From positions 1 to 43,998 of the forward strand of contig JBFWYD010000031.1 of the NCBI GenBank assembly GCA_050186825.1: a DNA stretch of 43,998 nucleotides, written 5' to 3'. Below the pieces are notes generated by a model. It had not been told where the DNA came from. It saw only the letters and a list, made by a program, of their open reading frames with translations, and made no database searches. Positions within the stretch are counted from its first letter, which is position 1. Each line of letters opens with the position of its first letter. Below, piece by piece: positions 5,189 to 43,998 of this stretch. The stretch is from Planctomycetota bacterium. Its GTDB lineage: Bacteria > Planctomycetota > J058. A program made the translations under genes and the position numbers.

Positions 5189-6241
5189 TTAGCCGACCGA
5201 GGACGCCGCGAGGCTCTGGTGGCGCGAGCGGGTGTCGCGCGCCTTGGCCGCGGGCTGCTCGACCGGGGCCGGCTTGGCCGGGGCCGGCTTGGCGGGCGGC
5301 TCCGTGGCCGCCGGCTGCTGGTCCTCGGCCTCGCCGGTCGCGGCCTCGAGCTCGAGGTCCTCGAGCTCGTCCTCGTCGTCGTCGCCCTTCTTCCCGCCCT
5401 CGCGGCTGCGCTTGTTGTTCGCCTTGATCAGCTGCTGGGCCTTGTTGAAGGTGATCGGGGCCACGATCGGCTCGTGGCGCCCCTTGACGTGGATGTCCCC
5501 GAAGTGGACGCGGCCGATGTAGGTGTCGTTCTTGAGGATCCAGGAGACCCCCGCCCGCGACCACTGCTTGCTCCGCCGCGTCCTGAGGCCCTGCTCGTCG
5601 AGGAGCTTGATCAGCCGCTTCATGCTGCGCAGGCGCAGGTACTCGCGAAAGATCAGCTTGACGACCTCGGCCTCCACCTCGTCCGGCACCAACATCACGC
5701 CCTCGCTCGAGCGCTTGTCGTAGTCGCGCCGGTAGCCGTAGGGAGCGGGGCCGCTCTGGTGCTTGCCCTGGCGGGCCCCCTCCTCGCGACCCTTCAGCAG
5801 GCGCTGCGCGATCTCGCGCTTGCGCTCCACCTCGTCGCTCTTGCGCGCCGCGACCTTCTTCGGCTGGCGCGCCTTGTAGTCCTCGACGATCGCCCGGAGC
5901 TGGCGGGCCGTGTCGTCGTTGGCGACGAGCACCCGCTTCCCGGCGTTCCGCAGCTCCTCGACGGGGTCGAAGGTGAGCGTGCTGCACAGCCCGCGGAGGC
6001 GGCAGCCGGAGACGATCAAGACCGCCTCCCAGTCGCTCTCCTCCATGTCGTCCAGGATGTTGACGAGCCCTGCGCGGGTGTCCTGGGTGGGGGTCAACCC
6101 GTGGTCGGTGTGGACCTTCTCCAGCGCGAGCCCGGTGTGGGAGGCGAAGGCCTCCAGTCTTCGAGTCTGCTCCTCGAGCGAGGGGAAGCCCCCTTCCTCC
6201 TGCTCGAGGTAGCTGACTCGGGCGTAGGCGACGACCTTCAC
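5189..6241 (-). CDS. serine recombinase. It has a resolvase/invertase-type catalytic domain plus a large-serine-recombinase 'recombinase' domain, lacks the zinc-ribbon/coiled-coil tail, and ends in a Lys/Pro/Ala/Asp-Glu-rich C-terminus
   Basis: The N-terminus MKVVAYARVSYLEQ matches the YxRVS(T)xxQ catalytic serine motif, and the downstream R..L.......D.L.V...RL.R block is present (TRAGLVNILDDMEESDWEAVLIVSGCRLRG). The recombinase-domain signatures APYGYRRD and ILKNDTYIGR follow. The protein is 350 aa with an acidic/KPAPA tail. The GTG start lies 7 nt after the MamK-like gene's stop. Confidence 0.8.
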   Translation of the reverse strand: MKVVAYARVSYLEQEEGGFPSLEEQTRRLEAFASHTGLALEKVHTDHGLTPTQDTRAGLVNILDDMEESDWEAVLIVSGCRLRGLCSTLTFDPVEELRNAGKRVLVANDDTARQLRAIVEDYKARQPKKVAARKSDEVERKREIAQRLLKGREEGARQGKHQSGPAPYGYRRDYDKRSSEGVMLVPDEVEAEVVKLIFREYLRLRSMKRLIKLLDEQGLRTRRSKQWSRAGVSWILKNDTYIGRVHFGDIHVKGRHEPIVAPITFNKAQQLIKANNKRSREGGKKGDDDEDELEDLELEAATGEAEDQQPAATEPPAKPAPAKPAPVEQPAAKARDTRSRHQSLAASSVG

Positions 6242-6248
6242 CGGTCGG

Positions 6249-7337
6249 TTAGCGCAGCTGCTCCCAGGCCTCGACCGGCATGTCGTAGGCGATCTTGAGC
6301 GCCCCGTTCGCGCCGGCGTAGACGGGCTCCTGCACCGGACGGACCTTGCCGCCGCCGTAGCCCTGGAGCGCCTCCTCGAGCGCGCGGTCGAGGCCGTGGA
6401 TGCGGCTGCCGCCGCCGGCCAGGATCACGTTGTTGCGCAGGCGGTCCTGGAACTCGGGGTCGAAGGTCGAGATCAGGCGGTCGACGGCCTCGACGATCGG
6501 CTCGACGATCCGGCTGCAGCCCTTGCGGACCTCGGCGGTCACGTCGAAGGCCTTGGGGCGGCCGCGCACGGGGAAGGTGACCATCACGGGCTCGGCGGCC
6601 TCGGTCACGAAGGCGTGCTTCTCCTTGATCTCGCGCACCATGTTGATGTTGAAGCTGGCGTCGGGGCAGCGGCCCTTGAACAGCTCGAACAGCTGGTGGT
6701 CGATGAAGTCGCCGGCCTGGGTCAGCGTGACCTGGTCGTCCTCGTCGGGCATCGAGCCCTTCATCCGGCAGAGGTCGGTGGTCCCGGCGCCGATGTCGAT
6801 CACCAGGCAGTCGTGGAGCCGGTCCATCCCGTAGGCGACCGAGAAGGGCTCGCTGCAGATCACCACCGAGTCGAGCACCTCACGGGCGGCCTCGATGATC
6901 GACTGCTTGTTGTGGATCGAGGCCTGCGCGGGGCAGCCGATCACGCCGTAGACGAGCTGGCCGGGCTTGGGGCGGGCCAGGCTGACCGCGTGCTGGATCA
7001 GGGCGCGCGCGGCCTCGAGGTTGGCGCTCACGTCCTCGCTCGGGGCGCCGGTCGAGTCGGAGTGCTTGATCACGCCCTTCTCGAGCGGGCGGTAGAGGTC
7101 GAGGGCCAGGCGGTGCGCCATGGCGTCGTCCCCGAACAGCACGTCGCGCTGGAGCAGCTTGCGCGAGACCACGTCGCGCGGGTAGCCGACGATGCTGCTG
7201 ACCGTCTCCCGCACGCCGTTGCTGGCCGAGATCGAGGTCCGCGAGGTGCCGAGGTCGATGCCGACGTAGAGGATCGAGTCGCTCTCGCCCTTCCGGTAGT
7301 TCAGGCGGTCCTGCGCCGCGCTCTTCTGCTTCTCCAT
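6249..7337 (-). CDS. actin-fold ATPase, MamK-like (MreB/ParM/MamK superfamily)
   Basis: Actin-fold signature motifs appear in order: phosphate-1 VGIDLGTSRTSI, connect-1 GVIGCPAQAS, phosphate-2 LVIDIGAGTTDLC, and adenosine/connect-2 ILAGGGSRIHGLDRALEEAL. Local blocks (IVGYPRD, CSEPFSVAYGMDRL, DEDDQVTLTQAGDFIDHQL) resemble MamK more than MreB or ParM, as far as I can recall. The start is ATG 7337-7335 (M27 of the tracker ORF) with a GGGGGAAG RBS 6 nt upstream. Confidence 0.85.
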   Translation of the reverse strand: MEKQKSAAQDRLNYRKGESDSILYVGIDLGTSRTSISASNGVRETVSSIVGYPRDVVSRKLLQRDVLFGDDAMAHRLALDLYRPLEKGVIKHSDSTGAPSEDVSANLEAARALIQHAVSLARPKPGQLVYGVIGCPAQASIHNKQSIIEAAREVLDSVVICSEPFSVAYGMDRLHDCLVIDIGAGTTDLCRMKGSMPDEDDQVTLTQAGDFIDHQLFELFKGRCPDASFNINMVREIKEKHAFVTEAAEPVMVTFPVRGRPKAFDVTAEVRKGCSRIVEPIVEAVDRLISTFDPEFQDRLRNNVILAGGGSRIHGLDRALEEALQGYGGGKVRPVQEPVYAGANGALKIAYDMPVEAWEQLR

Positions 7338-7392
7338 GATGTCTTCCCCCTGGGTGTTCAGCTCTGTTGGGTTCGTCGTCGTCTCGTGCGGC

Positions 7393-8166
7393 CTACGCCC
7401 GACGGCGGAGGCCAAGGTTCTGGTCGATCAGTCCGTTGAGCAGGCCACCCCCCCGGCGGCGCGCTCCCGAATTCGTTCCCAGCCCGCTGGCGGCGGGCGG
7501 CGGCGGCGGCGGCTCAGGGACCGCCGCTGGCGCGGGCGGCGGCTCCGCCCCGCGCGGCTCGGCCGCGTGGGTCCGCCCCGCCGCGGTCGACTGGCCCGGG
7601 TTGCGGAGCTCCACGTTGGCCCGCACCAGGCCCGCCAGGAGGCCCCCGCCGCCGCGCGGCATGGGCCGCGTCGTGTGTCCCGCGCCCTGGCTGGGCGCGC
7701 CCAGGCCCGCGGGCCGGCTCGGCGCCGCAGCCAGCGGCGTCGCGGCGACCGGCGCAGCGGCGACCGGCCCGTGCCCGAGCGGCGCGGCGACCGGCCCGTG
7801 CCCGAGCGGCGCGGCGACCGGCCCGTGCCCGAGCGGCCCGGCGACCGGCGCCGCGGCGGCGCGCTCGAGCCGCGCGGCGGCGCGCTCGAGCCTGGCCGCG
7901 ACCGCGGCCAGGCCCTCGCGCTCGCTGGCGCGCTCGGCCAGGCGCGCCTGCGCCTCGGCCAGCCGCTGGGCCAGCGCGTCGCGCTCGGCGCGCAGCCGGT
8001 CCAGCTCCGCCTGCGTCGGGCCCCCGCGGAGCTCGGCGCGCAGGCGCGCCACCTCCTCGCGCAGCCGGTTCCGCTCCTCCGAGAGGCGGGCGATGATCTC
8101 CACCGCGGCCCGCGGCAAGTCGCGGGTGCGGGAGAGGATCGCGGGGCTGCGCTCGAGGGTGGCCAC
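7393..8166 (-). CDS. coiled-coil plus Ala/Pro-rich repeat protein (candidate filament-associated adaptor)
   Basis: A GTG start follows a GGAG that overlaps the upstream stop (TGAGGAGCGAACACGTG). The N-terminal ~110 aa form a heptad-like coiled coil (ERNRLREEVARLRAELR...LAEAQARLAERASEREGLAAVAARLERAAARLERAAA). Then come three tandem GHGPVAAPL repeats, an Ala/Pro linker, and two copies of a GGGLL.GL...N..LR motif. Only the 3' ~775 nt of the 509-aa tracker ORF look protein-like. Confidence 0.5.
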   Translation of the reverse strand: MATLERSPAILSRTRDLPRAAVEIIARLSEERNRLREEVARLRAELRGGPTQAELDRLRAERDALAQRLAEAQARLAERASEREGLAAVAARLERAAARLERAAAAPVAGPLGHGPVAAPLGHGPVAAPLGHGPVAAAPVAATPLAAAPSRPAGLGAPSQGAGHTTRPMPRGGGGLLAGLVRANVELRNPGQSTAAGRTHAAEPRGAEPPPAPAAVPEPPPPPPAASGLGTNSGARRRGGGLLNGLIDQNLGLRRRA

Positions 8167-16486: not shown

Positions 16487-18429
16487 GTGCCCCGCTTCGT
16501 CCCCTGCCGGATCAGCCACCTCCTCGGCGAGCTGAGCGCGCTCCTGACCGAGCGCGACCGCGGGGCCTTCTACGCGCTGGCGCGCATCGTCGAGGCCTAC
16601 TACCACCACGCCGCCGGCGCCCAGACGCGCATGGCGGAGGAGCTCTACGCGCCCTTCGACCCCGACAGCGAGACCGTCCCGACCGTGGCCCCGCTCGGGG
16701 CCGACCCGGTCGGGCGGCTCTACGGCTGGCTGGACGGGCTGTTCGAGCGGGCCAACTTCGAGCGCGTCTCCCAGGACACGCTCCTCTCCGAGGCCGACCA
16801 GGAGGTGCTGACCACCTTCGAGATCGACCCCGACCTGCGCTCGGTCGAGCGCCTGGCCGTCTACGTGCGCGGGAGCGGGACCAAGGCCGTGCGCCTGCGC
16901 AAGGCCAAGGCCTTCTTCCGGCTCGAGGAGGCGGAGCAGCCCACCTACCGCCGCGTGGCGATCGTGGTCCGCACCGCGCACGACCCCTACGTGCTCCTGA
17001 AGATGTTCAAGGACGTGCCGCGCACCGACGTGGAGCTGCTGCTGCCCACCGTGCGCGTGAAGATGAAGCTCCTCGACAAGCTCAAGCTCTCGGGCACGGG
17101 CGGCGCCGCGGCGCTCTCGACCTGGAAGGTGCTCCGCCTCGCCTACACCTACGCGCCCACCATCACCAAGCTCCTGGCCGTCCCCTTCAAGCTGTTCCTG
17201 CTCCCGATCGCCTTCCTTGTCACGGCCTTCTACGGCGGCAAGACGGTCCTCGACTACGCCAAGATCCGCAGCAGCTACGTGACCGCGCTCGCCGAGCACC
17301 TCTACTCCATCACCCTCGCGAGCAACCGCGCCGTGCTCGGCCGCCTCGCCGCGCAGGCCGGCGAGGAGGACACCAAGGAGGCGCTGATCGCCTACGCGCT
17401 GCTGCTCGGCGCCCCCGAGGGGCTCTCCGCCGCCGCCCTGCGCGAGGCCGCCGAGGCCCTGGTCTGGGACCGCTACCGCGCGCGCGTCCGCTTCGACGTG
17501 GAGGACGCCCTGCGGAAGCTGAGCGAGCTCGAGCTGATCGAGCCGCTCGACGAGCAGCCAGGTGGCCCCGTGGCGCGCGCGGTCGACCTCGACGAGGCCC
17601 TTCGCCGCGTGGACAAGTCCTGGGACGACCTCTACAGCCCGCCGCCCCGCGAGACGCGGCTCTGGCGGCTGCTGCGGCGGAAGGAGCTCGCCGCGGGGGA
17701 GACTGCCGATTCGGAGGCGGTGACTGGCGAGGCGGAGGGATCAGGAGCTGCAGGGGCGGTTCAGCCCAGCGCAGCGGCGCAGAGGCGCGGAGACGCAGAG
17801 GGGCCCTCTCTGGAGCAGGCGCGCGACTCGGAGACGCCGGATTCGCAGGCGGCGGCTGCCGAAGCGGGGGGAACAGGAGCTGCGCAGGCGTTGGATTTCA
17901 GCGCAGAGATCGCAGAGAGCGCGGAGATCGCCAGGAGTGAGCGGAGGGGGGGCTCCGCAGCCCAGTCGGATCGGGACGAACGGACGGGCACGGGCACGGG
18001 CACGGGCACGGGCACGGGCATCCCAATGTCGAACTCGGACTCGGACTCGGACTCGCCCTCGGACTCGAAGTCGCGCCCTCGCCCACACCCACCGATCTCC
18101 GCGAACTCTGCGATCTCTGCGCTGAATAACAACGCTGTCGCACACCCTCGCGATCCCGGCCTCGCAACTCGCCCCGGCTCAGAGTCTCCGGCTTCGGCTT
18201 CGGACTCGGCCTCGGCCTCGGCCTCGGACTCGGACTCGGACTCGGTCCCGGACTCGGATTCGGATTCGGATTCGGATTCGGATTCGGCCTCGGCCTCGGC
18301 CTCGGACTCGGACTCGGACTCGGACTCGGACTCGGATTCGGATTCGGATTCGGACTCGGCCTCGAACTCGGACCCTGAAGCCGCGTCGGAAGACCCTGAC
18401 GACGTGCGGCCGATCCGGACGGTGCCGAG

Positions 18430-18433
<4 letters not shown>
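16487..18433 (+). CDS. DUF3754-like (TMEM143-like) membrane-associated protein. The core ends near nt 17700 and is followed by a ~240-aa low-complexity tail encoded by the second copy of the dispersed repeat
   Basis: The core of ~400 aa has a conserved-looking central hydrophobic hairpin (LLAVPFKLFLLPIAFLVTAFYGGKTVLDYAKIRSSYVTALAEHLYSITLASNRAVLGRL). The family call is from recollection only. The ORF continues stop-free through unit A, (GGGCAC)6 encoding TGTGTG, unit B and (GACTCG)n encoding (SD)n, to TGA 18431-18433, which overlaps the TTG start of the downstream kinase. Confidence 0.55.
17735..18400. repeat. composite dispersed repeat (copy 2): unit A (~17735-17950), inverted-repeat arms (~17897-17940 and ~18076-18127), (GGGCAC)6 (~17985-18020), unit B (~18073-18200), and a (GACTCG)n-type array (~18190-18370)
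   Basis: Direct nucleotide comparison with 10540-11430; the reading frame relative to the element is the same as in copy 1. Confidence 0.9.
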
Positions 18434-21621
<3,188 letters not shown>

Positions 21622-27809: not shown

Positions 27810-28493
27810 CTACGACCGCAGCTCGCACCAGCGCTCGACGATCTGGCCGGCGCGGACGATCGCCACGCCCGCGCGACCTCTGAGCGAGTCCCACCCGCCT
27901 TCGTCCCACTCCCAGAGCTCGTCTCCCCCGAGCATGCGCGCTGCGATCTCGGCGGCGCGCTCCCTCACGCGCATGGAGTCCGCCGCGAGGCCCAGGCGTC
28001 GCACGCAGAACTCGGCGTAGGTGGTCTGGCGCAGGAGGACCTGGCACAGCTCCGTGTGCTCATGCACCCACACCTCCCGGGCCTCCCAGCACCGAGCGCA
28101 GCCGACTTGCTCCCCAGCCGCGAAGGGGAAGGCGCGATCACGAGCCTGCTGAAGCTCCTTCGTGTCGCGGATGGGTGGCGGGAATCCGGACTGCTCCCGG
28201 AGGACCTGATCGTGTACGTCGCAGACTCGGAAGAGATCGAGGACTCCGGCAGGTGAGGTCTCGGCAGTGGGGACCTCGCTGACGAACGAGCACCACAGGC
28301 GCTCCTGCCAGAAGAGAAGGGCTCCCTTCTCCCGGCAGGGGCCATTGGCCGCCCGCACGAACCTCCGGTAGTCGTCAGGACCGACGAACGCGCGGAACTG
28401 CGCTCGAATGGCTTCGGGCTTCACGAACACCTCGGACAGGGCCGCGCTTGGCCGCAGCCTAGCTCGAGCCGGTAGGTCCGCCGACGCGACCAT
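27810..28493 (-). CDS. hypothetical Cys/Trp-rich protein (227 aa) in a locally lower-GC patch
   Basis: ATG at 28493-28491 (M56 of the tracker ORF). The protein-like sequence (MVASADLPARARLRPSAALSEVFVKPEAIRAQFRAFVGPDDYRRF...CREKGALLFWQERLWCSF...CARCWEAREVWVHEHTELCQ) has 8 Cys and 8 Trp. Local GC (~65%) is clearly lower than the flanks. Confidence 0.4.
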   Translation of the reverse strand: MVASADLPARARLRPSAALSEVFVKPEAIRAQFRAFVGPDDYRRFVRAANGPCREKGALLFWQERLWCSFVSEVPTAETSPAGVLDLFRVCDVHDQVLREQSGFPPPIRDTKELQQARDRAFPFAAGEQVGCARCWEAREVWVHEHTELCQVLLRQTTYAEFCVRRLGLAADSMRVRERAAEIAARMLGGDELWEWDEGGWDSLRGRAGVAIVRAGQIVERWCELRS

Positions 28494-28880
28494 GCTGGTC
28501 GCACGTGCGACGCCCTCGCCGAAGCTTGTCACTCTCCTTGCGGAGGAGCGCCCGAGCGGCCGCGCCGGCGGATGAGACCAGGTGCAGGGCGGTGTCTTCG
28601 TTTCCCGGAAATGAGCTGTCTCTCCGTCCCTGAGCGCAGACGCGATCCAAGTGGGCAAGCCCCGAGCTGCTCAGGGCTCCCGTCGCGGCATGAGCTTCGT
28701 AGCCGTTGCTCACGGCCCAGCCATTGCATTCTGGGTGCCCCGGGGGGGGCCGAGCTCACCCCCTGCAATCGACACGCCCAGCCGCAGGCACAGCCTGGAG
28801 CAGCGCTTCTGGCATCGGATCGCTGAAGGCGCGCTGGGGAGAGCCCGGGAGTCCGGCGTGCGGAAGCCGCACGCCTTCGC

Positions 28881-30407
28881 TCACCTCCCCGGCGGAGCGG
28901 CGAGGACGGCGGGGCGGCCGGTGACCAGGGCGTAGGTCCAGGGGTCGGCGAGGTGGGGCTCGCCCGGGAGGGCCTGGGTCGGGCACTCGGGCTCGCGCGT
29001 GCGACCGCGCATGCTGCGGCCGGCGGCGTGGCCGAGGACGGCGAGCCAGGCGCCGAGGAGCGCGGCGAGCAGCCAGCGTTGGGTGGGAGCGTGGCGGCGC
29101 CAGCGGACCAGGAGCTCGACGGCGGCGAGGGGGGCGAGGGCGCTGAGCGGCGCGATCGTGAAGCGCGTCGGGTCGTCGGTGGACCAGACCACGATCGTGG
29201 CGGCTGCGAGGCCCGCGGCGGCGAGGGCGAGCAGGCGACCGGCCGGGGCGCGCAGCGAGAGCAGGGCCAGGGGCAGGACCAGGAAGGCGTTCTTGGGCAG
29301 GAGGGCCGCCTCGAGCTGGTGCGCGAGGTTGCGCGCGATGCCCGCGAGGATCTGGGCCAGGCCCGCGGGCGGGGCGCTGCGCGCGGGGTCCATCAGGTCC
29401 TCGTAGCGCGCGGCGCGCAGCAGGTCGAGCTGCGGGGCGAGCACGCCGGTCGCGGCGCAGAGCGCGGCGTTGAGCGCGGCGAGGAGCGCGAGCAGCGCGA
29501 GCGCACGGCGGCGCCGGCCGCCCGCCCAGTGCCAGAGCACGAGCAGCGGGACCAGCACCCAGGCCTCGGGACGCGCGAAGCGGGCCAGGCCGGCGCAGAG
29601 GGCCTCGCCGAGGAGCGTGCCCCGACCGGCCGGGTCGAGCTCTCCCTGCCAGGCGAGGCGGAGGGCGGCGAGGACGAGCACCAGCCCCAGCGGCTCGGCC
29701 CAGAGGTGCACCGAGGCGCGGACCAGGAAGGGCAACCAGGCGACGGTCAGCCCTCCGAGCAGGGAGCACATGACCAAGGGAGCGCCGCGCAGACCGCGGC
29801 GCCGCGCGAGCTCGCCGCCGAGCGAGGCCGCGAGGACGGCGGCGAGCGCGGCCAGAGCCACGCCGCTGAGCTGGAGCGCGGCCGGTGGCCAGCCCGGCTC
29901 CGGGCGGACCAGGGGCGCGAGCAGCCACGGGTAGAGGGGAGCGCGCTCGCCGTAGGCCTCGTGGACGGCCGGAGCCTGCACGTCCGCGGCCTGGAAGCGG
30001 ACGCGGATCGGCAGGACGAAGCCCTCACCGGCGCGCAGCGAGCGCGCGATCAACAGGTTCTCGGCCGCATCGGGGCTGTGGTGGAAGTCGCGCAGGGCAG
30101 GCTCGAGGCGCGGGAGGACCGCGAGCACCGCGACCAGGAGCGCGAGCGCGATCCTCGGCAGGAGCCCAGGTCCATCCCGCGACACGGCCGCGAAGTCACG
30201 CGACCTCGACGCGGCCGCGGAGTCGCTCGACCTCGACACGGCCGCGAAGTCACGCGACCTCGACGCGACCGTGCTCTCACTCGACCTCGACGCGGCCGCG
30301 GAGTCGCTCGGCCTCGACGCGACCGTGCTCTCACTCGACCTCGACGCGGCCGCGGACTCGCTCGGCCTCGGAGACGCACGCGCGGGCTCGGGGATCGGGC
30401 TCGACAC
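28881..30407 (-). CDS. polytopic membrane glycosyltransferase-like protein (GT39/PMT_2/ArnT-like) with an N-terminal Ser-rich tandem 9-aa repeat region
   Basis: The C-terminal ~440 aa are extremely hydrophobic with at least 9 predicted TM helices. The first-loop motif is LRDFHHSPDAAENLLIARSLRAGEGFVL, resembling the D-E/A-A...Y/L loop of PMT_2/ArnT proteins. The start is assigned to GTG 30407-30405, 8 nt after the DUF58 stop, which places the 27-bp x7 repeat in-frame. An alternative start lies near 30193, after the repeat. The upstream 324 codons of the tracker ORF are Arg/Pro junk antisense to the DUF58 gene. Confidence 0.5.
   Translation of the reverse strand: MSSPIPEPARASPRPSESAAASRSSESTVASRPSDSAAASRSSESTVASRSRDFAAVSRSSDSAAASRSRDFAAVSRDGPGLLPRIALALLVAVLAVLPRLEPALRDFHHSPDAAENLLIARSLRAGEGFVLPIRVRFQAADVQAPAVHEAYGERAPLYPWLLAPLVRPEPGWPPAALQLSGVALAALAAVLAASLGGELARRRGLRGAPLVMCSLLGGLTVAWLPFLVRASVHLWAEPLGLVLVLAALRLAWQGELDPAGRGTLLGEALCAGLARFARPEAWVLVPLLVLWHWAGGRRRRALALLALLAALNAALCAATGVLAPQLDLLRAARYEDLMDPARSAPPAGLAQILAGIARNLAHQLEAALLPKNAFLVLPLALLSLRAPAGRLLALAAAGLAAATIVVWSTDDPTRFTIAPLSALAPLAAVELLVRWRRHAPTQRWLLAALLGAWLAVLGHAAGRSMRGRTREPECPTQALPGEPHLADPWTYALVTGRPAVLAAPPGR
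30184..30372. repeat. 27-bp tandem repeat x7 (minisatellite; consensus approximately gcggccgcggagtcgctcgacctcgac, alternating with the variants acggccgcgaagtcacgcgacctcgac and gcgaccgtgctctcactcgacctcgac)
   Basis: Seven contiguous 27-nt units are read directly. The period is divisible by 3. In the minus gene frame they encode 9-aa units (SRSSESTVA, SRPSDSAAA, SRSRDFAAV). Confidence 0.9.
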
Positions 30408-30415
30408 GCGCGCCT

Positions 30416-31306
30416 TCAGGCGCGCAGCAGCGCGCGGGCGGTGGCCTCGAAGGGGTCCGCGGGCGGGAGCCGCAGGCAGGTCACGCCGGCCTGCTCGAGC
30501 TCGCGGGTCGCGCGGTCGAGGCGGGCGTCGCGCTCGGTGCGCGCGGCCGCGAGGGCCAGGGGGCCGAGGGGGCGCAGCTCGCGGGCGCCGGTCTCGGCGT
30601 CGACGAGCTCGGCCAGGCCGCCCGCGGCGAGGGCCTCGCGCACGGCCGGGGGGACCTCGAGCTCGGGCTCGACCAGGAGCGCGCGCAGCTCGCAGCCGCG
30701 GGCGCGCAGGCGGCGCGCGGCGAGGGGGAGCTCTGGGTTGAGGCCGTCCGAGAGCAGGAGCGCGGCGCCGGGATGGCGGAGGTGCTGGGTGGCCAGGGTC
30801 GCGCCCCGATCGAGCGCGCTGGGGCCGCCGGCGCGGCCAACGGCCAGGAAGCGCAAGAGGCCCCGGAGCTGGCCCGGGCGGCGCAGCTCGTGGCGGCCGA
30901 GGGCCTCGCCGCACCACCAGAGCACCACGCGCACGTCGCGGGCCACGGCCACGGCCGCCAGGGCCGCGGCCGCCAGGGCGGCGCGCTCGAGCGGCGGCGG
31001 GTCGCCCGCGGCCATGGAGCCGCTGGCGTCGAGGAGCAGGTCGAGCCGCGGCTCGGGGAGCTCCTCCTGCACCTTGACCAGCAGGCGGTCGAGGCGCGCG
31101 TAGGCCGGCCAGTCGACCAGGCGCAGGTCGTCGCCCGGGGCGTAGTCGCGCCGGCTGCCCGGCTCGACCCCGCGGCCCGGCTGCTTGAGCGCGAAGCGCC
31201 GGCGTCGCGGCGGCCGGACCCGGCGGGCCAGGACCACCAGACGCTCGAGGCGCGCCGCCGTGCTCGACTCGAGGAGGACGCTCACCGCCGTCGTTGACCT
31301 CGCCAT
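30416..31306 (-). CDS. DUF58 family protein (VWA-like; usually partnered with MoxR AAA+ ATPases)
   Basis: The N-terminal DUF58 signature is G.G.E.GSRRDYAPGDDLRLVDWPAYARLDRLLVKVQEE, followed by the MIDAS-like LDASGSM; the protein is 296 aa. Confidence 0.8.
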   Translation of the reverse strand: MARSTTAVSVLLESSTAARLERLVVLARRVRPPRRRRFALKQPGRGVEPGSRRDYAPGDDLRLVDWPAYARLDRLLVKVQEELPEPRLDLLLDASGSMAAGDPPPLERAALAAAALAAVAVARDVRVVLWWCGEALGRHELRRPGQLRGLLRFLAVGRAGGPSALDRGATLATQHLRHPGAALLLSDGLNPELPLAARRLRARGCELRALLVEPELEVPPAVREALAAGGLAELVDAETGARELRPLGPLALAAARTERDARLDRATRELEQAGVTCLRLPPADPFEATARALLRA

Positions 31307-31364
31307 CCGCGCCCGCCGCCTCGACCAGGGACGAAGGCTGTCGCCTCCTGCAGGCGTCGCTCAG

Positions 31365-31808
31365 GATATCGCTCTCCATGCTCTACGCGCGGGACCCGTG
31401 GCCGGCGACGAGCCGGACCAGCGCGCCGACCTCTACTCCTTCGGCGTCATCCTGTTCGAGCTGCTGACGGGCGCCCTGCCGCTGACCGCGCTGACCGTCC
31501 GCGGCTTCCTGCGCGAGCACCTGGTCGCCGTGCCCCGGACCCTGGCGTCGGTGCGCCCCGAGGTCGCCTGGCCCGAAGGGATCGAGCGGCTCCTCGCGCA
31601 GCTCCTCGCCAAGGGCCCCGGCCAGCGGCCTGCCAGCGCCGCGACGGTCGAGGCCGAGCTCCATCGGCTGGCCAGGCCGATCGCGGCGGCCTTCGCCCAG
31701 GAGCCGCTCGGCCGCCGCCCCGCCGCCCGCACACCTCGTCCCCTGGGTCCCGACCCCGACCGCGTGCGTGGCTCGGGCGCCGTGACGGGCCCGCCCGCGC
31801 GGTCGTAG
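31365..31808 (+). pseudogene. C-terminal fragment of a Hanks-type Ser/Thr kinase (subdomains IX-XI plus tail only), with no N-lobe, catalytic loop or DFG
   Basis: DEPDQRADLYSFGVILFELLTGALP (subdomain IX D.YS.G..L.ELLTG) and the downstream LREHLV...P....RP...P.GIERLLAQLLAKGPGQRP (subdomain XI) are present. Nothing N-terminal to these exists because the DUF58 gene occupies the upstream DNA on the opposite strand. Confidence 0.55.
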
Positions 31809-31837
31809 GGCGGGCCGCGCTGCTGTAACCTCGCGGC

Positions 31838-32638
31838 GTGATCCGGGCCCGTGCTCCGCTCCTGCTCCTGATCGACGGCGCGCTGGTGCCGCACGGACCC
31901 GACCGGGTCACGCTCACCCTGGCCCCCGGCCCCGCCAGCGAGCACCGCTCGCGGGTGCGCGGGCTGGAGCACCAGCTGTGGGTCGACCCCTCGCTCCCGC
32001 CGCCCGCGGACGAGGGGCCGCTCGGGCCCGAGGCCAGCGCGCTGCGCGAGCTGCCCCCGGCGCAGGCCCTCGAGCTCGAGCGCGAGGGCCCCTGGCCGCC
32101 CCGGCCTGGCCTGGCGCTGGCCGCGCGCGCCGCGGCGCTCGCGGCCCTCGAGGCCGCGGCGCCCGCTCCCGCCCCGTCCGACCCGGCGTCCGACCTGGCG
32201 CCCGACCCGGCGCTCCTGGCCCTGCGGGCCGGCGAGCCCTGGCACCTCGCGGACGGGGCGCTGGCCCCGCTCGCGCCCGAGCAGCGGCGCTGGCTGGACG
32301 CGCGGCTGCTGCTCGCGCGCGACCGGACGCTCGGGCGCGGGGCGTCGCCGCGACCGCGCGACCCCGACCCCGGCGCAGGGCTCCTCGCCGTCCCGCCCGC
32401 CCCGCGCGAGCCCGAGCGCCCCGGCCGCTCCGAGCGCGACGCGCGCCAGCGCGCGGGCCTCGAGGCCCACGGCCTCGCGGCCGCGTGGCTGCTCGACGAC
32501 GGGGTGTGGCTGCTGCTCGCCGCGGACGGGCGGCGGGACGAGCTGGCCGCGGCCCTGCCCACGATCGGCCTCGAGCGCCAGCCGCTCTCCCTCGCGGAGC
32601 CGGCGCGCCTCGAGCTGGAAGGAGCGCTCCATGAGTGA
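31838..32638 (+). CDS. hypothetical protein (Ala/Leu/Pro-rich), overlapping the cutA start by 8 nt
   Basis: GTG-start ORF that fills the gap between the kinase fragment and cutA. The composition is protein-like but low-complexity. It is retained mainly because of its overlap-coupled junction with cutA. Confidence 0.35.
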   Translation: MIRARAPLLLLIDGALVPHGPDRVTLTLAPGPASEHRSRVRGLEHQLWVDPSLPPPADEGPLGPEASALRELPPAQALELEREGPWPPRPGLALAARAAALAALEAAAPAPAPSDPASDLAPDPALLALRAGEPWHLADGALAPLAPEQRRWLDARLLLARDRTLGRGASPRPRDPDPGAGLLAVPPAPREPERPGRSERDARQRAGLEAHGLAAAWLLDDGVWLLLAADGRRDELAAALPTIGLERQPLSLAEPARLELEGALHE

Positions 32639-32954
32639 GCCGCGCGGCCTGGTGGTCCTGTGCACGGTCCCCAACGAGGAGGAGGGCGCGCGCCTGGCCC
32701 GGGCGCTCGTCGACGAGCGCGTGGCGGCCTGCGTCAACCTGCTGCCCGGCGTGCGCTCCTTCTACCGCTGGGAGGGCGAGGTCAAGGACGACCCGGAGCT
32801 GCTGCTCGTGATCAAGACCACCCCGGCCCGCCGCGACGCGCTGATCGCGCGGATCCAGGCGCTCCACTCCTACTCCTGCCCCGAGGCGATCGCGCTCCCG
32901 ATCGCGGCCGGGAGCGAGCCCTACCTGCGCTGGCTGGGCGAGGTGACCGCGTGA
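32631..32954 (+). CDS. cutA: divalent-cation tolerance protein CutA
   Basis: 107 aa. The sequence VVLCTVPNEEEGARLARALVDERVAACVNLLPGVRSFYRWEGEVKDDPELLLVIKTT...YSCPEAIALPI is a canonical CutA1 sequence. Confidence 0.9.
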   Translation: MSEPRGLVVLCTVPNEEEGARLARALVDERVAACVNLLPGVRSFYRWEGEVKDDPELLLVIKTTPARRDALIARIQALHSYSCPEAIALPIAAGSEPYLRWLGEVTA

Positions 32955-34357
32955 GCCGTGCGACGACCGTCCTGCTCCTGCTGCTCCTCCTCCTCGGGGC
33001 CGCGGCCCGCGCGCAGGAGACCCCCACGCCGCCGCGCCCGCGCGAGGGTCGCGAGCAGCCCGCGCCCGAGGACGAGCGCTGCCGCCCGACCGACCTCGAG
33101 GCCCTGCGCGCGGCGGCCTTCGCGCCCGAGCGCCTGCGCGCGCGCCGCCGCGCGCTCCTGGCCGGGCTCCCCGAGGACGCGGTGGTCGTGATCGCGGGCC
33201 CGCCCGCCGAGAGCGACATCCTCGGCTACCGGCCCGAGCCGAACCTGCTCTACCTCTCGGGCCAGACCGATCCCTCGCTGACGCTCCTGCTCAGCAAGGA
33301 CGAGGACGTGATCTTCGCGCCCGAGCGCGACAAGCGCTGGGAGCGCTGGAACGGGGAGCGCCTGGCCGTGGGCAGCCCGCAGGCGGCCGCCTCGGGCTTC
33401 GGCGAGGTCGTGGCCAAGGGTCAGCGCAAGGCGCGCGTGCTCGCCGCGCTCGAGCGGCACAAGGGCGGGCTGTTCCTGCTCGGGGTCAGCCCCGCCGAGC
33501 TCGGGCTCGAGGGCGCGCCGCAGCACCGCTCGCCGGCCCCCGCGCTGGCGCGCCTGCGCCAGGTCAAGGACGCGGGCGAGCTGGCCCTGCTCGAGCGCGC
33601 CGCGGACATCACCTGCGCCGCGCTGGGCGAGGCCGCGGCCTCGGTCCGCCCCGGGCAGTACGAGTACGAGGTCGAGGCCGTGATCGAGTACCTGTTCGCG
33701 CGCTACGGCGCGCAGCGCCCGGGCTTCACCTCGATCGTCGGCTCGGGCCCCAACTCCTGCGTGCTGCACTACGGGAGCAACCGGCGCCGGATCGGCGCGG
33801 GCGAGCTGGTCGTGATGGACGTGGGCGCCGAGCTCTTCGGCTACACCGCGGACATCACGCGCACGGTCCCCAGCTCCGGCGCCTTCTCCCCGCGCCAGCG
33901 CGAGATCTACGAGCTGGTGCTGGCGGCCCAGAAGGCGGGCTTCGCCGCGGTGCGCCCCGGGGCCACCCTCGGCGACGTGGACGCGGCCGCGCGCAAGGTG
34001 ATCAAGGACGCGGGCTACGGGAGCTACTTCGCCCACTTCACCTCGCACTGGCTGGGGCTCGACGTGCACGACGTGGGCGAGCACCGGCGCGCGCTCGAGC
34101 CGGGGATGGTGCTCACGGTCGAGCCGGGGATCTACCTGAGCAAGGAGGACCTCGGGGTGCGGATCGAGGACTACGTGGTCGTCACCAAGGACGGCTGCCG
34201 CGTGCTCTCGGACGGGGTGCCCCGCACGGTCGCGGCGCTCGAGGCCCTGGCCAGGCGCGAGGGCGTGGGCAAGCTGCGGGTCACGCCCCTGCCCCCGCGC
34301 GCCCCCGTCGCCCCGAAGCCCTCGGGCGCGCGCCAGTTCGAGCTGCGCCTGCGCTGA
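32951..34357 (+). CDS. secreted Xaa-Pro aminopeptidase (M24B family, PepP-like)
   Basis: The GTG overlaps the cutA stop (GTGA). Signal peptide VSRATTVLLLLLLLLGAAARAQ. The M24 pita-bread motifs appear in order: HYGSN, VVMDVGAELFGYTADITRT, HFTSHWLGLDVHD, TVEPGIYL and RIEDYVVVT. Confidence 0.85.
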   Translation: MSRATTVLLLLLLLLGAAARAQETPTPPRPREGREQPAPEDERCRPTDLEALRAAAFAPERLRARRRALLAGLPEDAVVVIAGPPAESDILGYRPEPNLLYLSGQTDPSLTLLLSKDEDVIFAPERDKRWERWNGERLAVGSPQAAASGFGEVVAKGQRKARVLAALERHKGGLFLLGVSPAELGLEGAPQHRSPAPALARLRQVKDAGELALLERAADITCAALGEAAASVRPGQYEYEVEAVIEYLFARYGAQRPGFTSIVGSGPNSCVLHYGSNRRRIGAGELVVMDVGAELFGYTADITRTVPSSGAFSPRQREIYELVLAAQKAGFAAVRPGATLGDVDAAARKVIKDAGYGSYFAHFTSHWLGLDVHDVGEHRRALEPGMVLTVEPGIYLSKEDLGVRIEDYVVVTKDGCRVLSDGVPRTVAALEALARREGVGKLRVTPLPPRAPVAPKPSGARQFELRLR

Positions 34358-34950
34358 TGGACCACGGCCGCCGGACGCAGGAGCGGGCCGCGGCGGCCGG
34401 CGACCCCGAGGCCGCGGCCGCCCTCCTGCTCGCGCGGGTGCGCGACGGGGAGCTGGAGCGCGAGGGCCTGGAGCTCGCCGCGCACCTCGGCGAGGTCGCG
34501 GCAGCGCTGGCCCTGGGCCAGGCCGCGCCGCCGCCGCTCGAGCTCGAGCCCTGGCTCCAGGCGCTGGCGCGCTGGCCGGTCGAGGTCGCGCGCCGCGCGG
34601 TCTACGCCCTGGCCAGCCTGGCCGAGGACCGACGCCCGGGCGGCGCGCCCGACCCCGAGCTCGACGACATGCTGCGCGACTACCTGCGCCAGGCGCTCCC
34701 GGAGTACCGCCGCCAGATCCTGCGCCGCCAGCTCGAGCGCCAGACGAGCTCGCGCTGGCAGCAGGAGGCGACCAAGGCGGCCGCGTCCGCCGGCCCCGAG
34801 CGCGCCCTGCGGGTCCAGGCCGCGCAGCGCGCCTACGGCCTGGCGCAGCTCCTGCTCGGCGCGGGCGTCCAGGAGGAGGAGCTGCGCGCCGCCGTGCGCG
34901 CGCTGCTCCTGCCCTGGGCCCTGGGCGGGCCGGATCCGCTGGCGCCGTGA
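34357..34950 (+). CDS. hypothetical protein (197 aa)
   Basis: The ATG overlaps the upstream stop (TGATG). The composition is protein-like, with no recognisable motif. Confidence 0.35.
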   Translation: MDHGRRTQERAAAAGDPEAAAALLLARVRDGELEREGLELAAHLGEVAAALALGQAAPPPLELEPWLQALARWPVEVARRAVYALASLAEDRRPGGAPDPELDDMLRDYLRQALPEYRRQILRRQLERQTSSRWQQEATKAAASAGPERALRVQAAQRAYGLAQLLLGAGVQEEELRAAVRALLLPWALGGPDPLAP

Positions 34951-35010: not shown

Positions 35011-36540
35011 GTGAGCCAGGAGCTGCCAGGCATCCCGCTCGAGGTGCTGGAGCGAATCGGCGCGGGCGGGATGGGCGAGGTCTACCGCGCCCGCGACGCG
35101 CAGGGCCGCGCGCTCGCGCTCAAGCTCCTGCTGCGCGGGCAGGGCGAGGGCGACCCGACCGTGCGCCGACGCCGCTTCGAGCGCGAGGCCGCGGCCCTCG
35201 AGCGCGTCCAGCACCCCAACGTCGTCGGCGTGGTCGCGCGCGGCGACTCTCCTCGCGGCCCCTGGCTGGCCATGCCCTTCCTCGAGGGCGAGCCGCTCGA
35301 GGCCAAGCTCCCGCTCCCGATCCCCGCCGCGCTCGAGCTCGCGCTCCAGCTCGGCGCGGGGCTCCGGGCCGCGCACGCGGTGGGCGTCCTGCACCGCGAC
35401 CTCAAGCCGGACAACGTCGTGGTGTGTCGGGACGGGCGCTACGTGCTCGTGGACTTCGGGCTGACCAAGGACGTCGAGGGCCAGGGTCAGTCCGGGACCC
35501 TGACCCGCACCGGGATGCTCCAGGGCACGCCCGGCTACTGGGCGCCCGAGCAGGCCGCGGGCGAGGGGCGACGCGTGAGCGTCGAGACCGACGTCTACGG
35601 CTACGGCGCGACGCTCTACGCGGCGCTGACCGGCGTCCCGCCGGCCGACGGTCAGACCCTGCTCGAGCTGCTGGTCGCGACCCAGGAGCGACCGCCGCGG
35701 GCGCCGCGCGAGCTGCGCCCCGAGGTCCCCGCCTGGCTCGAGGCCTTCGTGCTCCGCTGCCTGGAGAAGAGCCCGAGCGCGCGCTACCCGAGCATGGAGG
35801 CCGCCCTGGAGGCGCTCCACGCGGGGATCGCGGGGCAGGCGCCCACCTGGCGCTGCTCAGGCTGCGGCGAGCCGCCCCGCGGCGGGGTCACGCCGCTCGT
35901 CTGCGTGTGCGGCAAGCAGTACCACCCGCTCTGCCTGCGCACCCAGCCCTGCGCGACCCCCGGCTGCGGAGGCGGCGGTCGCGCCAGCGGACGGGCGAGC
36001 CCCGGCCCCGGCCTGGTGGTGGACCCCGAGCCCGAGCCCCAGGAGCGCGCGCCCTCGCCGCTCCGGCGTCTGTTCGCCAACCCCGAGCGGGTCCAGACCG
36101 CGGTCTTCCTCTCGGCGATCGCCCTCGGCACCCTCCCCGGCCTGGCGCTCCTCCACGCCCACTGGGGCGCCAGCGCGGGCGGCGCCGAGCTCCGCGAGGC
36201 CGCGACGTTCCTCGCCGTCGGCGCCGTCGCGGGCGGGGTCCTGGCGGTGATCGCCCTGGCCGCCCTGGAGTGGCTCGGCGACCTGGTCCGCCAGCGCGAC
36301 GACCCCAAGATCCGCCTGACCTGCCTGACGATCCTGGGGAGCGCCCTCCTGGCCAGCGCCCTGGTCGCGGGCGAGAGCTGGCAGGCAGGCCGCAGCCCCA
36401 CTCAGGTGCTGGTGGTCGGGGTGCTCAGCTTCGTGGGCACCTTCGTGCTCGTGGGCCTGTTCATGGTCAGCGTCGTCGGCCAGGCGCTGGTCGCGCTGGT
36501 CGAGGCGCTGCGGGCGCTGCTCCGGGGCCGACGGCGCTGA
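35011..36540 (+). CDS. Hanks-type Ser/Thr kinase with a C-terminal Cys-cluster (zinc-ribbon-like) and a polytopic TM tail
   Basis: Kinase motifs: GAGGMGEVY, LALKLL, HRDLKPDN, DFGLTKD, GTPGYWAPEQ, DVYGYGATLY. Then WRCSGCGEPPRGGVTPLVCVCGKQYHPLC...CATPGCGGGG, and then 3-4 hydrophobic helices. Confidence 0.8.
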   Translation: MSQELPGIPLEVLERIGAGGMGEVYRARDAQGRALALKLLLRGQGEGDPTVRRRRFEREAAALERVQHPNVVGVVARGDSPRGPWLAMPFLEGEPLEAKLPLPIPAALELALQLGAGLRAAHAVGVLHRDLKPDNVVVCRDGRYVLVDFGLTKDVEGQGQSGTLTRTGMLQGTPGYWAPEQAAGEGRRVSVETDVYGYGATLYAALTGVPPADGQTLLELLVATQERPPRAPRELRPEVPAWLEAFVLRCLEKSPSARYPSMEAALEALHAGIAGQAPTWRCSGCGEPPRGGVTPLVCVCGKQYHPLCLRTQPCATPGCGGGGRASGRASPGPGLVVDPEPEPQERAPSPLRRLFANPERVQTAVFLSAIALGTLPGLALLHAHWGASAGGAELREAATFLAVGAVAGGVLAVIALAALEWLGDLVRQRDDPKIRLTCLTILGSALLASALVAGESWQAGRSPTQVLVVGVLSFVGTFVLVGLFMVSVVGQALVALVEALRALLRGRRR

Positions 36541-42147: not shown

Positions 42148-42849
42148 TCAGAAGTCCTGGCCGAGGGCGTGGACGCTCAGCTCGTCCACGTTGACCCCGG
42201 GCGGCTGGCGCACGAGGTCCACGATCACGCCCGCGAGGTGGCCGGGGTCGAGCTCCCAGGGCTGCGTGTTGGCCGAGGGCGCGCGCCCGCCGAAGTGGGT
42301 GTTCACGATCCCCGGGTTGACCACGGTGGACTTCACGCCCGCGGTCCGCAGCTCGCGCGCGAGCGACTGCGAGAAGCCGGCCACCGCGTGCTTGGTGGCA
42401 GCGTAGACCGCCATGTTCGCGAGCGGCTTGCGGGCCAGGTCCGAGGCGATGTGGACGAGGTGCCCGCGGCCGCGCGCGACCATCGCGGGGACGACCTCAC
42501 GCGTGAGCAGCACCAGCCCGAGCAGGTTGACCTCGACCTGGAGCGCGAGCTCCTCGGGCGAGCTCTCGAGGAAGGGCTTGTAGCTGCCCGTCCCCGCGTT
42601 GTTGATCAGCGCGTCGACCGGGCCGAAGCGCGCCTCGAGGGCCGCAAGCGCGGGGCGGAGGGTGGCGCGATCGGCGAGGTCGAGGCGCGCGGTGGCCAGG
42701 CGCTCGTGGCCGAGCTCGTCCGCGAGCGCGCGCAGCTCCGGCTCGCTGCGCGCCACCGCGGACACGCGCGCGCCGGCGGCGTGGAAGGCGCGCGCCAGCG
42801 CGCAGCCGAGGCCGCGGCTGGCGCCGGTGATCAGGACGTGGTCGTGCAC
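42148..42849 (-). CDS. short-chain dehydrogenase/reductase (SDR)
   Basis: GTG start with an AGGAG RBS. Cofactor-binding motif TGASRGLG (TGxxxGxG), NNAG, and the catalytic YAATK (YxxxK); 233 aa. Confidence 0.85.
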   Translation of the reverse strand: MHDHVLITGASRGLGCALARAFHAAGARVSAVARSEPELRALADELGHERLATARLDLADRATLRPALAALEARFGPVDALINNAGTGSYKPFLESSPEELALQVEVNLLGLVLLTREVVPAMVARGRGHLVHIASDLARKPLANMAVYAATKHAVAGFSQSLARELRTAGVKSTVVNPGIVNTHFGGRAPSANTQPWELDPGHLAGVIVDLVRQPPGVNVDELSVHALGQDF

Positions 42850-43998
42850 GGCGGCGCTCCTGCGCTGGGGTCGGGGTCGAGGCCAGGCTCGAGGCCAGGC
42901 TCGAGCTCCGGGTCGGGGTCGAGGTGCTCCTCGGGGGCCGGACCATCCTCGGGGACGAGGTCCGGCGCGAGCGTGAGCCCGAGCGCGAGCAGGAGCAGGC
43001 CGCCGGTCGTCCCACCCCACAGGATCCACGCGTCGGCGAGCGCGCGCCCGAGCGGGCCGCGCCCGGCCAGGCCGACGGCCAGGAGCGCCAGGGCCAGCGG
43101 CGCGCGATGCCGCCCCGGGCGCAGCAGGAGCGCCCCCGCGACCGCGCCCGGGAGGATCAAGGTCACGAGGTGCGGCTTCCAGGCGATGGGCGAGACCAGC
43201 GGGATCGCGGCCGTGACCAGGGCCAGGGCGCGTACGCCGCGCGCGCGCTGCGCGAGCGCGAGCGCCAGCGCGAAGGCGCCGAGCGACAGCGCGCGGGCGA
43301 GCAGCAGCGCGCGCTCGGGCGGGAGGGCGAGCAGCAGCGGGCGCGGCGTCTGGCCGGCGTCGGCGCTCCCGGCCAGGAGGCGCGCGGCGAGGCCAGGGAG
43401 CGCCGCGTTGTTGCCGACGAAGGCGTGGTAGCGCGCGTTCCAGGGGGTGACCTCGAGCGCGAAGCGCGCCAGGTAGTCGAGGTTCCGCCCCCAGCCGAGG
43501 ACGAGGGCGGGCAGGAGCAGGAGCGCCGCGAGGGTGGCGCCCGCGGCGGCGACCACGCGCCTGCGCCCCCGGAGCAGGTAGTGGGCGACGACCAGCCCCG
43601 GGGTCAGCTTGAGCGCAACCGCCGCGGCGAGCAGCGCGCCGCCCAGGAGCTCGCCGCGCTGGAGCTCGCCGCGCTGGGCGCTTCCCGGCGCGGCCCCGAC
43701 GCCCGCGCGCTCGACCGCGGCGATCCCCTCGAGGGTCAGCCAGGCCACGAGCAGGTTGACCTGCCCATGGTTCAGGTCGCTCCACGCGTAGCGCAGCCAG
43801 AAGCCGAGCCCGAGCGCCACGGCGAGCGCGCTCGGCGGGCGCGGGAGCAGGTCCACGGCCAGCCAGGCCGCGCGGAAGGCGGCCAGGACCCCGAGCGCGC
43901 ACCACAGCCCGCGCAGGAGCGGGAAGGGGAGGGCGCACAGCGGGGCGAAGGCGAGCGCGAAGGGCGGCGGGTAGATGTAGGCCGTCGGCCGGGTCGGG
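42831..43998 (-). CDS. polytopic membrane protein, GT87/DUF2029-like (polyprenol-phosphate-sugar dependent glycosyltransferase family); the 5' end lies beyond the window
   Basis: Continuous hydrophobic helices with a conserved-looking loop WLRYAWSDLNHGQVNLLVAWL (the DL..GQVNL motif typical of DUF2029/GT87). The C-terminal tail PDLVPEDGPAPEEHLDPDPELEPGLEPGLDPDPSAG is encoded by a short tandem repeat (ggccaggctcgag x2). The stop overlaps the SDR start by ~18 nt. Confidence 0.5.
   Translation of the reverse strand, partial: PTRPTAYIYPPPFALAFAPLCALPFPLLRGLWCALGVLAAFRAAWLAVDLLPRPPSALAVALGLGFWLRYAWSDLNHGQVNLLVAWLTLEGIAAVERAGVGAAPGSAQRGELQRGELLGGALLAAAVALKLTPGLVVAHYLLRGRRRVVAAAGATLAALLLLPALVLGWGRNLDYLARFALEVTPWNARYHAFVGNNAALPGLAARLLAGSADAGQTPRPLLLALPPERALLLARALSLGAFALALALAQRARGVRALALVTAAIPLVSPIAWKPHLVTLILPGAVAGALLLRPGRHRAPLALALLAVGLAGRGPLGRALADAWILWGGTTGGLLLLALGLTLAPDLVPEDGPAPEEHLDPDPELEPGLEPGLDPDPSAGAPPCTTTS

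Follow-up and report, generated by a model that had tools for sequence, protein, structure and literature searches.

A 3' fragment of a Planctomycetota serine/threonine kinase gene beside an oppositely oriented DUF58 gene is most likely a gene remnant

Pseudokinases retain the complete bilobal fold of a protein kinase and have lost catalytic residues only; within the kinase fold, αF is a buried core helix. The short open reading frame (ORF) described here encodes a product that, like the pseudokinases, is kinase-derived and certainly non-catalytic, although approximately 70% of the kinase fold is missing from it. In sequence and in predicted fold it matches part of the C-lobe (approximately residues 191-279) of PknB from Mycobacterium tuberculosis (PDB 1MRU, 1O6Y, 6B2P), whereas it lacks the N-lobe, catalytic loop, DFG, activation loop, APE and the PASTA or any other sensor domain. 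In the Planctomycetota, kinase genes are documented to have undergone lineage-specific duplication and recombination (PMC11032199), and the fragment is found in a metagenome-assembled genome (MAG) from a poorly sampled, very high-GC lineage of that phylum, in which it marks one end-point of a rearrangement.

The window (the whole stretch of DNA that was analysed, 43,998 nucleotides) has an overall GC content of 0.758, and the features around the fragment are collected in Table 1. The DUF58 product is 296 amino acids long if read from the ATG at 31306, or 289 amino acids from the GTG at 31285 that is called by NCBI. Its gene is transcribed away from the fragment and occupies the DNA in which the 5' part of a kinase gene would be expected. 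On the other side, the 266-aa gene opens an X-CutA-PepP run, its stop overlapping the start of CutA. Protein P0001 is the product of the fragment ORF, differing only by M/V at the start.

Table 1. The kinase gene fragment and the annotated features surrounding it, in window coordinates.
Feature	Position	Strand	Remarks
TPR protein gene, intact, 1126 aa	24374-27754	+	gene call
204-aa orphan ORF	27810-28424	-	gene call; GC 0.69, GC3 0.84
434-aa polytopic membrane protein	28881-30185	-	gene call
DUF58 gene, intact	30416-31306	-	Pfam PF01882, 57.2 bits, profile 2-191 of 216
Divergent spacer, DUF58 start to fragment	31307-31397	.	91 nt
Fragment ORF	31398-31808	+	136 codons, then TAG stop; NCBI: hypothetical protein AB7N76_33725
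Kinase-derived part of fragment	31398-31706	+	helices αF, αG, αH, αI; Hanks subdomains IX-XI
C-terminal tail of fragment	31707-31805	+	Pro/Arg/Gly-rich; predicted disordered; family tail motif absent
266-aa protein gene	31838-32638	+	gene call; 29 nt 3' of fragment
CutA	32631-32954	+	gene call
Aminopeptidase P (PepP)	32951-34357	+	gene call
197-aa protein	34357-34950	+	gene call
Complete 509-aa Ser/Thr kinase	35011-36540	+	gene call; separate from fragment

A first-pass annotation of this DNA had recognised here the orphaned 3' part of a Ser/Thr kinase gene, and this identification was borne out, since the Pfam, PDB and family-profile matches are all confined to the C-lobe. Pfam Pkinase (PF00069) matches the fragment at profile positions 175-257 of 263 only, with 22.5 bits (E 8.7e-5), a score that lies below the 31.7-bit gathering score, as is expected for a partial domain. 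Similarly, the NCBIfam model PknB_PASTA_kin is matched over positions 182-271 with 48 bits against a cut-off of 450. A phmmer search of PDB sequences with the fragment returned 301 sequences at E <= 1. All 60 of the 60 matches listed are kinases, the best among those listed including B-Raf (6e-7) and PknB (2e-6), and the alignments always fall on the C-terminal ~90 residues of their kinase domains.

The predicted structure agrees with these matches. An AlphaFold model, built on the family alignment, has pLDDT values of 92-97 over residues ~10-100, and 56-69 in the tail, such that residues 101-136 are of low confidence. The helices of the model (residues 9-24, 34-42, 49-52, 60-69 and 81-100) correspond to αF, αG, a short helix, αH and αI, and the model superposes on the PknB C-lobe with 2.2 Å over 89 columns. 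The Asp of subdomain IX (DLYSFG, D11) and the Arg of subdomain XI (QRP, R77), both of which are invariant columns, are kept. This confirms that the fragment is a real piece of a kinase C-lobe, with a similarity far above chance. It contains neither the HRDxKxxN catalytic loop nor DFG or APE (subdomains VIb, VII and VIII), and the N-lobe with its Gly-rich loop and VAIK lysine (subdomains I-II) is also missing and is supplied by no frame or strand of the window. Since only the αF-αI sub-domain and a diverged tail are left, the product, as read from its sequence, cannot bind ATP or transfer phosphate.

With the fragment as query, an exhaustive HMMER search recovered 51,603 proteins with E values of 1e-3 or lower. 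Among matches over a single stretch, the best (47-57% identity) are proteins of ~540-590 aa which align to the fragment at their C-terminal ends, and the search for a full-length counterpart that the first-pass annotation had proposed thus led to a family of ~550-aa kinases and to one member of particular relevance, P0180. Members of this family have a conserved N-terminal domain of ~170 aa, a low-complexity linker, a Pkinase domain at ~250-520 and a short C-terminal tail, which in most of 20 aligned members, and also in P0180, carries the motif G-L-L-x-R-L / F-F-x-x-F. The N-terminal domain is matched by no Pfam or NCBIfam model. The named members, among them P0019, P0032 and P0171 (GCA_023954375.1) and P0180 (MGE0708393.1), originate from Planctomycetes/Planctomycetota MAGs.

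A profile built from 20 members (552 positions) matches the window at 31398-31706 with its positions 430-533, scoring 125-130 bits (E 4e-41). Using a profile of the C-terminal region, the fragment scores 127.5 bits, compared with a median of 137 (lower quartile 130, minimum 72) for 49 independent full-length members and a median of 70.5 (maximum 97.7) for 178 non-family kinases. These scores indicate that the fragment is derived from a Planctomycetota-specific kinase family and is not a generic kinase piece. Residues 1-104 align to the end of the family kinase domain at 45-60% identity and without notable gaps, sharing the patterns LREHLV.VP.TL, W.P.LE.L.A.LLAK and RP.S. With 136 aa against the ~550 aa of family members, the fragment has no N-terminal domain, linker or tail motif, and approximately two thirds of its kinase domain (subdomains I-VIII) are missing.

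It can be seen from the alignment that homology to the family starts sharply at GTG 31398, one residue past the family's 'APET', which places the right-hand end of the apparent breakpoint at 31397/31398. The first-pass annotation had set the fragment at 31365-31808; the end of this interval stands, whereas its start has to be moved, as homology runs from 31398 and 31365-31397 is non-coding. Codon-position GC is in keeping with this boundary, because the coding signal begins at ~31390 and none is seen in the frame of the fragment across 31307-31390. Across the fragment ORF itself, GC1/GC2/GC3 values are 0.83/0.58/0.94, which resemble those of the real genes and neighbours in the window. The openness of the frame is by contrast uninformative, since stop-free runs of at least 137 codons fill 62-80% of every frame in the window.

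A break somewhere between the DUF58 start (31306) and 31398 accords with the breakpoint at ~31310-31365 that had been proposed; the absence of the catalytic core and the presence upstream of an oppositely oriented DUF58 gene had been noted as well, and both agree with our results. Nothing matching profile positions 1-429 is encoded between 30000 and 32000 or anywhere else in the 44-kb window, whichever frame or strand is read, and the DUF58 gene is intact (57 bits). When positions 1-240, covering the N-terminal domain, were scored alone, all scores were negative in six frames across the whole window. The only other kinase matches in the window belong to two complete and separate kinases, at 18421-19227 and 35035-35838. 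An N-lobe encoded upstream in another frame, the finding that had been named as contradicting a fragment, was looked for in all frames and not found. A frameshifted upstream continuation was considered, as ISLSMLYARDPW in frame +1 resembles the family sequence ISGSPAYVAPET, but the match scores 1.1 bits only, a value equalled at 0.5% of window positions, and with ~30 admissible placements it is not significant. A local inversion that moved the 5' part across the neighbouring block or elsewhere in the window was likewise rejected, the six-frame scan with the family HMM being negative.

The source of the sequence is a metagenome-assembled genome, and high-GC repeats are common in the region, so that the junction might be an assembly chimera or a frameshift artefact and the gene full length in the organism. 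We regard this as extremely unlikely. Across 1.1 kb the junction sequence of the window agrees at 100% identity with contig JBFWOT010000064.1 of GCA_050250455.1 and with the independent Logan assembly of SRR27751815, a comparison of assembled sequences, not reads, that covers three sequence sources and at least two assemblers. In addition, the fragment protein is recorded on a 116.7-kb contig, no other frame holds an N-lobe, and the DUF58 gene is intact right up to the spacer.

We then considered how the DUF58 gene and its neighbours relate to the break. The first-pass annotation had suggested that a block made up of the DUF58 gene, a glycosyltransferase gene and an orphan gene (27810-31306) arrived as a unit, either inserting into a kinase gene or replacing its 5' half. 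Between ~15.2 and 36.5 kb the called genes do all lie on the plus strand except these three, a Pfam scan of window ORFs revealed no MoxR partner for the DUF58 gene, and the 204-aa ORF and the adjoining 456-nt spacer are of lower GC (0.69-0.70). This lower GC is limited to that part of the block, however: the DUF58 gene (GC 0.81, GC3 0.98) and the 434-aa gene (0.78 and 0.95) are host-typical, and other 1-kb bins of the window fall to 0.685. Apart from GC-rich chance matches, no repeats, direct or inverted, flank the block, its proteins contain no integrase, recombinase or transposase domains in Pfam or NCBIfam, and the nearest recombinase lies 21 kb away.

A simple insertion of the block is refuted, because it would leave the 5' 430 codons of the kinase gene on the far side of the block, and they are absent there: an intact TPR gene ends at 27754 on that side, and it gives no kinase or N-domain signal when the whole window is scanned with the HMM. 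Replacement of the 5' half of the kinase gene by deletion or rearrangement is possible. Overall, we consider arrival of the block as a unit rather unlikely. Two further elements of the earlier description did not survive inspection. The 'lower-GC run' caggatatcgctctccatgc, located at 31362-31381 and remarked on at the proposed breakpoint, is not a scar but part of an ordinary divergent spacer whose GC content of 0.714 falls within the 0.62-0.87 of other intergenic spacers in the window. The 434-aa protein that had been called a glycosyltransferase has no match in Pfam, NCBIfam or PDB sequences and no similarity to the GT87 gene of the window; the 204-aa protein, too, has no Pfam or NCBIfam match.

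Related loci were sought through the genes downstream of the fragment. Among species-representative genomes there is no relative of the 266-aa protein, and PepP reaches at best 41% identity, in a locus with no neighbours in common. A JGI metagenome scan with the fragment gave two generic kinase matches only, to residues 1-28. A large protein database contains ~45 PepP relatives at 57-67% identity, and seven loci (L088-L094) were read for six of them, in which PepP is 58-67% identical. In all seven loci CutA and PepP are adjacent, and a gene on the same strand, differing in length between loci, precedes them; the last 90 aa of the 266-aa protein are 61% identical to the gene 5' of CutA in L091 and L092. 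None of the seven has a family kinase or the DUF58 block upstream of CutA-PepP, nor any homologue of the DUF58, 434-aa or 204-aa proteins nearby. The absence of block homologues would fit the arrival of the block. As the family kinase is also absent from this site in the relatives, and as they are distant, they are nevertheless uninformative on the order of events. No close relative carries a full-length kinase at the site of the fragment, and that a full-length copy once stood there is something we infer.

The fragment is accompanied, very probably in its own MAG, by an intact member of the family. P0180 (553 aa; MGE0708393.1 and MGE4142723.1) belongs to the same two accession series as the fragment (MGE0710077.1 and MGE4145643.1) and the neighbouring PepP, and it is on these series, which stem from two MAG submissions, that the assignment is based. 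P0180 retains the N-terminal domain, HRDLKPEN, DFG, SPAYVAPE and an FFNRFFKR tail. It is ~53-56% identical to the fragment, and its own closer relatives (64%) sit in other genomes. No protein more than 57% identical to the fragment is present among the cluster representatives of the exhaustive search, and a word-based protein search found no near-identical longer protein. At such identities, the fragment has not been copied recently from P0180 or from another assembled gene.

These comparisons bear on the idea that no complete kinase gene ever stood at this site and that a copy of no more than ~400 nt from the 3' end of a family gene arrived here, by partial duplication or translocation through illegitimate recombination. 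Such an origin would be in line with the expansion of Planctomycetota kinase families by lineage-specific duplication and recombination (PMC11032199) and with the probable presence of P0180. It would also suit the relatives, which have no family kinase beside X-CutA-PepP, and the two family kinases inspected in other genomes, which occupy unrelated neighbourhoods. Nonetheless, it is quite unlikely, given the low identity to P0180 and to every other protein found. Furthermore, an old copy that had never functioned should lose conserved residues and codon bias, and the fragment has not done so.

The state of preservation of the fragment can be read from the family alignment (A3). All 10 invariant columns are kept, and at columns that are at least 80% conserved the fragment matches the consensus in 24 of 27 (0.89; family mean 0.92 +/- 0.09). 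At variable columns it matches in 0.42, against 0.51 +/- 0.10 for the family, which puts it at approximately the 23rd percentile of the family for both classes of column. Its mean identity to family members is 45.5%, compared with 50.8 +/- 6%. No frameshift, stop, loss of conserved residues or loss of codon bias was found in the fragment. The sole loss within it is that of the tail motif, which is not above background in any of three frames across 31690-31880, and a frameshift hiding the motif is thereby excluded. As conservation and codon bias are within the range of the family, the divergence of the fragment appears to have built up under family-typical constraint. This would mean either that the gene was truncated recently when measured against its divergence from known relatives, or that the piece is still constrained. 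The label 'pseudogene' has truncation as its one ground in this case, in the absence of a frameshift, a stop or conserved-residue loss.

Continued constraint would be expected if the fragment were a retained and translated mini-protein, comprising αF-αI from GTG 31398 and serving through its αG surface as a decoy or docking piece for the paralogue or for substrates. The frame is open and a start codon falls exactly at the homology boundary, in the position of the family's conserved Ile/Val right after APE. GC3 is high, conserved family residues are kept at the normal rate of the family, the helical sub-domain is confidently modelled, and a same-strand operon begins only a short distance downstream. 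Nevertheless, a recent truncation would be expected to show all of these signs just as much, open frames are uninformative in this window, and the high pLDDT merely mirrors the family alignment. An isolated αF-αI unit would expose hydrophobic surface, αF being buried in the complete fold, and the family tail motif has been lost. There is no clear Shine-Dalgarno sequence for the ORF, and 31100-32000 contains no sigma-70-type promoter or terminator consensus, although a scan for consensus promoters is uninformative for Planctomycetota.

Nor do such proteins form a recurrent class. Other short matches to the family (112-291 aa) are mostly on contigs of 0.5-1.1 kb or at contig ends; some cluster with proteins of 593-633 aa, and one lies at a contig end beside a split ORF. 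A class of stand-alone C-lobe proteins was rejected accordingly. Taken together, we judge a retained mini-protein to be very unlikely, and the specific proposal that the 136-aa product works on its own as a docking or decoy module, modulating P0180 or its substrates, to be a shade less probable again. If it were true, a regulator would have been made from a gene remnant and a kinase sub-domain reused for regulation. The coincidence of the homology boundary with an exact usable start codon may be due to chance, and it is also what a translated mini-gene needs.

We consider it probable that the fragment is the 3' remnant of a family kinase gene, a second paralogue, that was cut just after APE and is now most likely a non-functional relic. 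In this history, a deletion or rearrangement would have taken away ~1.3 kb of coding sequence from the 5' end, or ~430 codons, and with them the N-terminal domain, the Gly-loop and Lys, the HRD loop, DFG, the activation segment and APE, leaving the αF-αI helical sub-domain and the diverged tail. The first codon retained would happen to be GTG, and as stops are rare at 76% GC the piece would stay open and be called as a 136-aa protein. The truncation would be recent relative to the divergence from all known relatives, since in its substitution pattern and codon bias the fragment still resembles a family member under constraint. Transcription of the fragment would at most be passive, as the leader of the 266aa-CutA-PepP genes, and the intact paralogue P0180 would make the loss of this copy tolerable.

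The main consequence is for annotation: AB7N76_33725 is more aptly filed as what is left of the 3' end of a Ser/Thr kinase gene than as a hypothetical protein, and it should be excluded from kinome tallies. The parent family is the more useful by-product of the analysis, being widespread and uncharacterised and having an N-terminal domain that awaits a Pfam or NCBIfam model.

Among known systems, the fragment is most likely an ordinary gene remnant. It differs from typical remnants in carrying no secondary lesions and in having an in-frame start codon at the break, and it is for these reasons that annotation pipelines call it a gene. As in other bacterial gene remnants, the part that is left, a gene end including the stop codon, lies beside unrelated DNA, and an intact paralogue is very probably present elsewhere in the genome.

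The remnant, the 136-aa 3' end of a Ser/Thr kinase gene encoding the kinase C-lobe only, derives from an uncharacterised Planctomycetota Ser/Thr kinase family of approximately 550 aa, with 69 members among the proteins fetched. Alignments A2 and A3, which include P0019, P0031, P0032, P0036, P0171 and P0180 among other members, show a conserved N-terminal domain of approximately 170 aa, for which there is no model in Pfam or NCBIfam, and a conserved C-terminal tail (G-L-L-x-R-L / F-F-x-x-F). Two complete kinase genes lie no more than 13 kb from the remnant, one on each side, and both were ruled out as members of this family, their match to the family profile being confined to the kinase-domain part.

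Features in the window and at related loci (L083 and L085, family kinases in other genomes; L088-L094, relatives' CutA-PepP loci).
Feature	Location	Strand	Remark
Family kinase gene	L083 8001-9698		
Family kinase gene	L085 8001-9680		
Serine recombinase gene (Resolvase + Recombinase domains) with adjoining MreB/actin-like ORF	window 5192-7427	-	
Complete Ser/Thr kinase gene	window 18400-21621	+	1073 aa
204-aa orphan ORF and adjoining 456-nt non-coding stretch	window 27810-28880		
434-aa polytopic membrane protein	window 28881-30185	-	'glycosyltransferase' of the first-pass annotation
27-nt tandem repeat	window 30150-30397		at least 7 copies; between 434-aa gene and DUF58
X-CutA-PepP genes	window 31838-34357; L088-L094		
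Complete Ser/Thr kinase gene	window 35011-36540	+	509 aa

Within the minus-strand block to the left of the remnant, the label 'glycosyltransferase' given earlier to the 434-aa protein could not be verified: searches of Pfam, NCBIfam and PDB sequences returned zero matches, and no similarity to the GT87 gene of the same window (42834-43997) was found. The 27-nt repeat is in the reading frame of this ORF, with predicted 9-aa units rich in Ser, Ala and Arg. Because the frame is open through the repeat as far as 31379, the annotated start (30185) may be too short. The 204-aa orphan ORF has an atypically low GC3 of 0.84 (0.94-0.99 in its neighbours) and is followed by the non-coding stretch at a GC of 0.70. 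This ORF is possibly a gene in decay or a wrong gene call. A possible mobile element is the recombinase and MreB/actin-like region, located where GC reaches its minimum for the window's left half (0.69-0.71).

The X-CutA-PepP gene order, with overlapping stops and starts, is kept in relatives whose PepP is 58-67% identical. The X gene ranges from 263 to 572 aa across these loci, and the window's 266-aa protein is recognisably conserved only in its last ~90 aa, which are 61% identical to those at L091/L092.
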